Sequence record: KY304109.1
Reading direction: 5' to 3' (one strand)
Length of the DNA stretch: 335 bases
From: a phage
The notes beneath the pieces were generated by a model. The model was given only the letters and a program-made list of their open reading frames with translations. It was not told the origin of the DNA and searched no databases. A program made the translations under genes and the position numbers. Each line of letters starts with the position of its first letter. Within the stretch, counting starts at the first letter, position 1. This document shows, piece by piece, positions 1 through 335 of this stretch.

Positions 1-335
1 CGCACGATACCACTTCACCTCGGGCAATGGCGCAAACTCTGCGGAATCTGACGCTGGGTAAACCATTGGGCGACAGCCAACCGGCGCAGCTGGTGCAATG
101 GATGAAAGGCAATACCACCGGTGCACCGAGCATTCAAGCTGGACTGCCTGCTTCCTGGGTTGTGGGGGAAAAAACCGGCAACGGCGGCTATAGCACAACC
201 AAACATATCGCGGTGATCTGGCCAAAAGATCGTGCGCCGCTGATTCTGGTCACTTACTTCACCCAGCCTCAACCTAAGGCAGAAAGCCGTCGCGATGTAT
301 TAGCGTCGGCGGCTAAAATCGTCACCGACGCTATA
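1..335 (+). CDS. blaCTX-M: Class A extended-spectrum beta-lactamase, CTX-M family (group 1-like), partial CDS truncated at both window edges; first complete codon at nt 3, last at 333-335; no start or stop codon in window
   Basis: The + strand frame starting at nt 3 is open for 111 codons. Its translation matches the C-terminal third of CTX-M enzymes as I recall them: [83 protein letters not shown]. The nucleotide sequence from about nt 207 to 329 matches my recollection of blaCTX-M-15 exactly. The frame is missing from the supplied ORF track, presumably because it has no stop codon in the window. Confidence 0.95.
171..179 (+). other. blaCTX-M: Codons for the conserved class A beta-lactamase KTG motif (Ambler Lys234-Thr235-Gly236)
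   Basis: Codons aaa-acc-ggc encode K-T-G in the context [11 protein letters not shown], the position of the KTG box on the B3 strand of class A enzymes. Ambler numbering was derived by counting back from Arg276 and forward from Asp179 and is approximate. Confidence 0.85.

Follow-up and report, generated by a model that had tools for sequence, protein, structure and literature searches.

The closest described counterparts of the 335-base stretch of DNA analyzed here (the window) are the class A beta-lactamase genes blaCTX-M-15 and blaCTX-M-55, represented in our ungapped comparisons by the annotated blaCTX-M-15 CDS of plasmid pC15-1a (NC_005327.1; bases 996–1330 of locus L001). The window resembles this gene in aligning to it without gaps and in the same frame, in being 100% identical over positions 205–330, and in retaining Gly240, the KTG motif and the sequence of the C-terminal helix. 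It differs by 18 base changes and 12 residue changes, which lie at positions invariant or nearly so in the CTX-M groups tested. Two other kinds of CTX-M sequence serve as points of comparison. The natural divergence of CTX-M-2 and CTX-M-14, and CTX-M-64-type hybrids, are like the window in being ungapped and composed of substitutions only, with transitions about as frequent as transversions; however, 48–50 of the 73–74 natural changes fall at third codon positions whereas those of the window are evenly distributed, and the natural changes are spread over the whole region, with 26–29 of them in 205–330 where the window has 0. Error-laden CTX-M-15 fragments in public assemblies (P0019 and P0015) share with the window a CTX-M-15 origin and changes that are not biological, but they carry the frameshifts typical of indel-type assembly errors, whereas the window has substitutions only and keeps its frame. 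The AAC run that is altered at window positions 203–204 appears to have an extra A in P0019 which, judged from the protein frame, is not offset by a compensating loss. The features of the window are as follows.

3–335, plus strand: open reading frame fragment, codons 181–291 of a blaCTX-M-15-type class A beta-lactamase gene (translation and ungapped CDS alignment).
1–204, plus strand: block rich in substitutions, containing 15 of the 18 differences (7.4% of its bases) (comparison with blaCTX-M-15).
186–188, plus strand: GGC codon for Gly240 (Ambler numbering), the D240G marker (comparison of translations).
205–330, plus strand: block of 126 bases identical to blaCTX-M-15/-55 (ungapped comparison).
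331–335, plus strand: last five bases, three of them differing; GGTTTG has become GCTATA when read from position 330, and Gly-Leu has become Ala-Ile.

Translation of the window revealed a single open frame, frame 3 of the plus strand, with 111 codons. Alignment to the pC15-1a gene placed the window at CDS positions 539–873, beginning within codon 180. The top megablast match was blaCTX-M-15/blaCTX-M-55, at 96.0% over positions 6–330 in one ungapped piece, and the encoded protein is ~89% identical to CTX-M-15 (12 residue differences in 111). The protein matched the NCBIfam family NF033089 (blaCTX-M) with 210.1 bits over profile positions 182–290 of 291, so that the likeness to the family runs along the whole covered part; the curated cut-off of 570 bits is set for the full-length protein and is beyond the reach of a fragment of 111 residues. 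Pfam family PF13354 was matched with 42.9 bits. The sole class A catalytic motif that falls within the window, K234-T235-G236, is intact, and the S70-x-x-K73, S130-D-N and E166 motifs lie upstream of it. The Gly240 codon indicates that the parent backbone is CTX-M-15/-55 rather than CTX-M-3 or CTX-M-1, and identities to plasmid records over positions 6–210 were 93.7% for CTX-M-15/-55, 93.2% for CTX-M-3 and 92.2% for CTX-M-1. Other features on both strands were confined to short or antisense open reading frames without support, and the Rfam search gave one sub-threshold match (mir-138, 19.3 bits against a threshold of 50, E = 0.12). The last three bases (333–335) are exactly the last sense codon, 291, with the stop codon outside the window. 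This end fits a CDS-delimited or stop-less source, and a random genomic cut would be unlikely to produce it.

The 18 base differences from blaCTX-M-15 are at positions 4, 5, 63, 82, 96, 97, 126, 137, 170, 181, 185, 192, 197, 203, 204, 331, 333 and 335, and fall in 15 codons, 12 of them replacing and three silent (CAG to CAA, GGT to GGC and ACC to ACA). In precursor numbering the replacements are R181H, A201P, R207P, T212Q, A222P, D236E, S240N, G244S, N247K, D248H, G290A and L291I. In Ambler numbering, converted using the standard gaps, the same 12 are R178H, A198P, R204P, T209Q, A219P, D233E, S237N, G242S, N245K, D246H, G289A and L290I (Ambler numbers are used below unless stated). Seven of the base changes are transitions and 11 are transversions, and three codons carry two changes each. 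The remaining 12 of the 15 altered codons differ by one base, and the new codon of L290I is the rare ATA. Throughout the window no indels relative to blaCTX-M-15 and no in-frame stop codons were found. The substitution-rich block codes for the segment running from the end of the omega loop up to and including strands beta3 and beta4, with the KTG motif intact, and D233E, S237N, G242S, N245K and D246H all fall within it. Two adjacent double changes, at 96–97 (AC to CA) and 203–204 (CG to AC), can each be read as a frame-restoring pair of +1/−1 indels.

This inventory agrees closely with the first-pass annotation of the window, which had been made from the sequence and an assumed blaCTX-M-15 reference. 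Its count of 12 replacing and three silent codons and every change that it listed were confirmed by the pC15-1a comparison, and the assumed reference, whose possible error at these sites we checked, was correct at all of them. The stretch that it gave as identical, about 207–329, is close to the actual 205–330, and the G-to-C transversions (five), the codons with two altered bases and the alteration of the last two codons (G289A and L290I) were all observed.

The changes in 331–335 could be more of the same noise as that upstream or could mark a breakpoint where homology stops, and five bases are too few to tell. Two distant natural class A fragments with 57–60% identity, P0024 and P0027, have Ala-Ile aligned with the altered Gly-Leu of the window, their C-termini reading "...AEAISN" and "...ADAINK". 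This sharing of Ala-Ile is probably a coincidence.

Comparison of the window with natural CTX-M genes revealed a marked difference in how the changes relate to the reading frame. By the Nei-Gojobori method the window and CTX-M-15 differ with dN = 0.057 and dS = 0.055 over 333 bases, an omega (dN/dS) of 1.04, and the value over positions 3–206 was 0.96. The natural controls, compared with CTX-M-15 over the same 333 bases, gave omega values of 0.11 (CTX-M-2) and 0.10 (CTX-M-14). Changes at codon positions 1, 2 and 3 numbered 6:5:7 in the window versus 15:10:48 and 17:7:50 in the natural comparisons. Thus, neither the dN/dS well below 1 nor the excess of third-position changes expected under purifying selection was seen in the window. 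The ratio of nonsynonymous to synonymous codons, 12:3, also departs from the 19:44 of CTX-M-14 (Fisher P = 0.00075) and the 21:34 of CTX-M-2 (P = 0.007). If the divergence were natural, with an omega of 0.1 and the observed dS, ~1.2 replacements would be expected in positions 1–206, where 11 were seen (P ~ 7e-8).

Simulation of 18 uniform random substitutions on CTX-M-15 gave 74% replacement codons versus the 80% observed. The frame stayed open in 57% of these trials, and the open frame and intact KTG motif of the window are therefore only weakly informative, as they are expected by chance with P = 0.57. The replacements were slightly more conservative than random ones (mean BLOSUM62 score of −0.08 vs −0.61), which was not significant (P = 0.12). 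The neutral omega, the even use of codon positions and the random-like share of replacements together indicate a pattern such as frame-blind substitution produces. The first-pass annotation had called the pattern non-natural, and the contrast in omega upholds that view; the richness in transversions that it had also cited carries no weight, as the ratio of transitions to transversions did not differ significantly from the natural between-group ratios of 42:32 and 37:36 (P = 0.20 and 0.44). We accordingly set this ratio aside as evidence, since it has no discriminating power.

The altered sites are ones at which CTX-M enzymes seldom vary. Only one of the 18 new bases, the C at 185 (as in CTX-M-14), is found in CTX-M-1, -2 or -14; the other 17 occur in none of them. 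All of the replaced residues but the last (11/12) are identical in the four CTX-M proteins compared. Among 48 aligned database homologues of 39–93% identity, Pro201, Pro207, Pro222, Asn240 and His248 (precursor numbering) occurred in none, the remaining new residues were rare, and no homologue shared more than two of the 12 replacements. D233, N245 and D246, which are conserved across CTX-M groups and in nearly all of the 48 homologues, are replaced in the window. Sites that vary between CTX-M groups make up five of the 18 variant sites versus the ~5 given by a rough, uncomputed estimate, so that no enrichment is apparent. R204P would presumably sit in a helix of the CTX-M fold. [quoted passage not shown] Considered from the sequence, the encoded enzyme, if it were ever made, would probably be impaired.

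Profile scores point the same way. Compared with an equal fragment of CTX-M-15, the window scored 210.1 versus 239.1 bits with blaCTX-M (a fall of 29 bits), 120.5 versus 138.3 with bla_class_A, and 42.9 versus 55.0 with PF13354. The 90 NCBIfam families that matched, and the two Pfam families, all scored the window below CTX-M-15, which indicates that the changes do not lead toward another beta-lactamase family or a consensus. On this ground we rejected a chimera with, or a consensus drawn toward, TEM, SHV, KPC and similar enzymes. A219P resembles Pro219 of TEM and T209Q resembles Gln209 of SHV.

We searched for the sequence in 72,556 plasmids (PLSDB), 5,426 complete E. coli genomes and 50,697 phage records by megablast. 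Over 3,700 records from plasmids and E. coli covered at least 80% of the window; none of them exceeded 96.0% identity, and thus none shares a net extra variant with the window. The phage records held nothing closer than blaCTX-M-15/-55 at 96.0%. One plasmid record matched at 99% or above; it must represent a short match inside 205–335, because no PLSDB plasmid record reached 95% identity to positions 1–210. A 35-mer carrying seven of the variants was absent from 185,579 GTDB species-representative genomes, JGI metagenomes and IMG/VR, and shorter patterns (27-mers upward, with two or three variants) were absent from the GTDB species genomes and JGI metagenomes.

At the protein level, the search returned CTX-M fragments only, with full-length identities no higher than 88%, and the exact 111-residue product was present neither in a collection of 15 billion proteins nor in its contig index. 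The closest solved structures were of wild-type CTX-M-15 rather than of an engineered variant, and a literature search using both Ambler and precursor numbering found no paper with two or more of the substitutions. A catalogued CTX-M allele or a Kluyvera chromosomal bla gene identical or nearly identical to the window, which according to the first-pass annotation would have spoken for a natural origin, was looked for with annotated plasmids, E. coli genomes and the protein collection as proxies. No named allele or Kluyvera gene was found within 1–3 residues of the window protein, and nothing was closer than CTX-M-15. An unannotated truncated blaCTX-M remnant was noted in NZ_CP104852.1 (bases 1501–1580 of locus L005). 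It starts at approximately window position 131, has an IS26 transposase gene 64 bases away, and is of the ordinary kind left by IS26 truncation.

The substitutions show two regularities of their own. The new bases comprise 10 A and 8 C, with no G or T, a strand-asymmetric outcome with P ~ 4e-5 under uniform choice of the new base, or 7e-5 for any two-base set. By type there are five G>A, five G>C, three C>A, two T>C, two T>A and one A>C, and G accounts for 10 of the 18 replaced bases. The changes are also clustered: with 18 sites placed at random, a run of 126 unaltered bases would arise with P = 0.003. The block concerned, 205–330, is not intrinsically invariant, as it differs from CTX-M-15 at 29 sites in CTX-M-2 and at 26 in CTX-M-14. 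If IUPAC ambiguity codes had each been replaced by whichever base comes first in the alphabet, 17 of the 18 changes would be reproduced, all but the A>C at 96. Other ideas are that one detection channel was lost or that the generator was biased.

Several specific processes were considered and rejected. The changes are not adenine-specific, as in hypermutation of the DGR type, and have no preference for the TpC or WRC contexts of APOBEC/AID-type deaminases (both from inspection of the alignment). Copying of a neighboring base by phasing or slippage would account for 11 of the 18 new bases against 8.0 expected, which is not significant (P = 0.10). Replacement at the codon level or a back-translated design does not fit with 12 of 15 codons differing by one base, three silent changes and the rare ATA. 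Recombination with another CTX-M group was rejected since just one of the 18 new bases (185 C, in CTX-M-14) is matched in CTX-M-1, -2 or -14, and a consensus of CTX-M groups whose degenerate positions had each been reduced to one base was rejected since the variant sites are not enriched at positions that vary between groups.

Taken together, we consider it probable that the window reproduces the 3′ third of the blaCTX-M-15 or -55 gene in altered or corrupted form, with changes that were never naturally selected. In this scenario the 3′ third of the gene would have gained 18 single-base substitutions by a process blind to codon position and to conservation. The process behind the substitutions appears to have been artificial, and the likeliest source would be a sequence altered as data, by in silico perturbation, as a generated sequence, or as an artefact of base calling, consensus building or ambiguity codes; wet-lab mutagenesis of one segment without selection is a related but less likely possibility. 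Some observations count against parts of this explanation. The restriction to A and C and the clustering are not what uniform random mutation in silico would give; both features speak against such a simple mutator and, it appears, against the spectra usual for error-prone PCR. Insertions and deletions are common among ordinary sequencing errors, and their absence from the window speaks against a reading as sequencing error, although the double changes at 96–97 and 203–204 could each be a compensating +1/−1 pair. The first-pass annotation had proposed an engineered or evolved variant, an in silico altered sequence or sequencing error in place of a natural allele; that it is not a natural allele is supported, and of its proposals the least likely is one shaped by selection for function. 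Such a variant is unlikely because omega is ~1, three prolines have been introduced, and invariant or nearly invariant residues have been replaced.

A laboratory variant of CTX-M-15, either a clone from un- or weakly selected mutagenesis or from doped oligonucleotides (with a cassette at about codons 181–248), or a designed multi-mutant, would explain why the substitutions are confined to one segment adjoining a perfectly wild-type block, and is consistent with the lack of indels, the retained frame and KTG motif and an end on the last sense codon, like that of a stop-less cloning cassette. A dN/dS near 1 is what would be expected of an unselected library clone, although selection for function should have given an omega well below 1. 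With five G>A, five G>C, three C>A and no change to G or T, the spectrum appears unlike those common in error-prone PCR, in which G>C is usually rare, and ~7% substitution is very heavy for one clone. Rational or computational design would not add three prolines, the rare ATA codon and three silent changes, and no solved structure or paper found has these substitutions. We therefore regard a laboratory origin as unlikely. It is more doubtful still, and in our view improbable, that the window is real DNA encoding a functional, heavily remodelled CTX-M-15 derivative whose 12 substitutions give an altered substrate or inhibitor profile. Such a derivative might have come from laboratory evolution or computational design, or might be an uncommon natural allele subject to strong diversifying selection, and D233E, S237N, G242S, N245K and D246H would then be of interest as lying in or beside the beta3–beta4 active-site wall.

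A genuine natural allele or recombinant, in which positions 1–204 would stem from a divergent lineage of CTX-M or Kluyvera or have been shaped by strong diversifying selection, is superficially suggested by the mosaic of a divergent and an identical block, by the existence of CTX-M hybrids such as CTX-M-64 (one was among the plasmid matches), and by the two distant natural homologues with Ala-Ile at the aligned C-terminal positions. We consider it very improbable, given an omega of 1.04 against ~0.1 and the surplus of replacements in 3–206 (11 vs ~1.2 expected; P ~ 7e-8). The 17 of 18 new bases found in no other tested CTX-M group, the lack of enrichment at naturally variable sites, the drop in score with every family profile, the ceiling of 96.0% in over 3,700 records (at least 80% coverage) from plasmids and E. 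coli and the absence of exact k-mers from genomes and metagenomes likewise tell against it. A decaying pseudogene remnant of blaCTX-M-15, evolving neutrally since its inactivation, would account for a dN/dS near 1, which is a signature of pseudogenes, and truncated blaCTX-M remnants beside IS26 do exist in plasmids. However, a uniform clock would not produce ~7% divergence in 204 bases while the adjoining 126 stayed unchanged (P = 0.003), nor is such divergence compatible with the mobilization of blaCTX-M-15 only a few decades ago. The window also has no indels or stops and no related remnant in any collection searched, and this origin is scarcely credible.

If the fragment were real and functional, it would imply an unexpected tolerance of substitutions in the beta3–beta4 region and helix 10 of CTX-M enzymes, which nothing here supports. 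A resistance-gene caller would report it as a novel CTX-M-like allele with ~89% protein identity and changes in the active site. These data indicate that dN/dS, codon-position use, site conservation and the absence of exact k-mers, when used together, make a quick and strong filter for such sequences. The finding matters mainly for data hygiene, and the fragment should not be counted as natural diversity of the CTX-M family.
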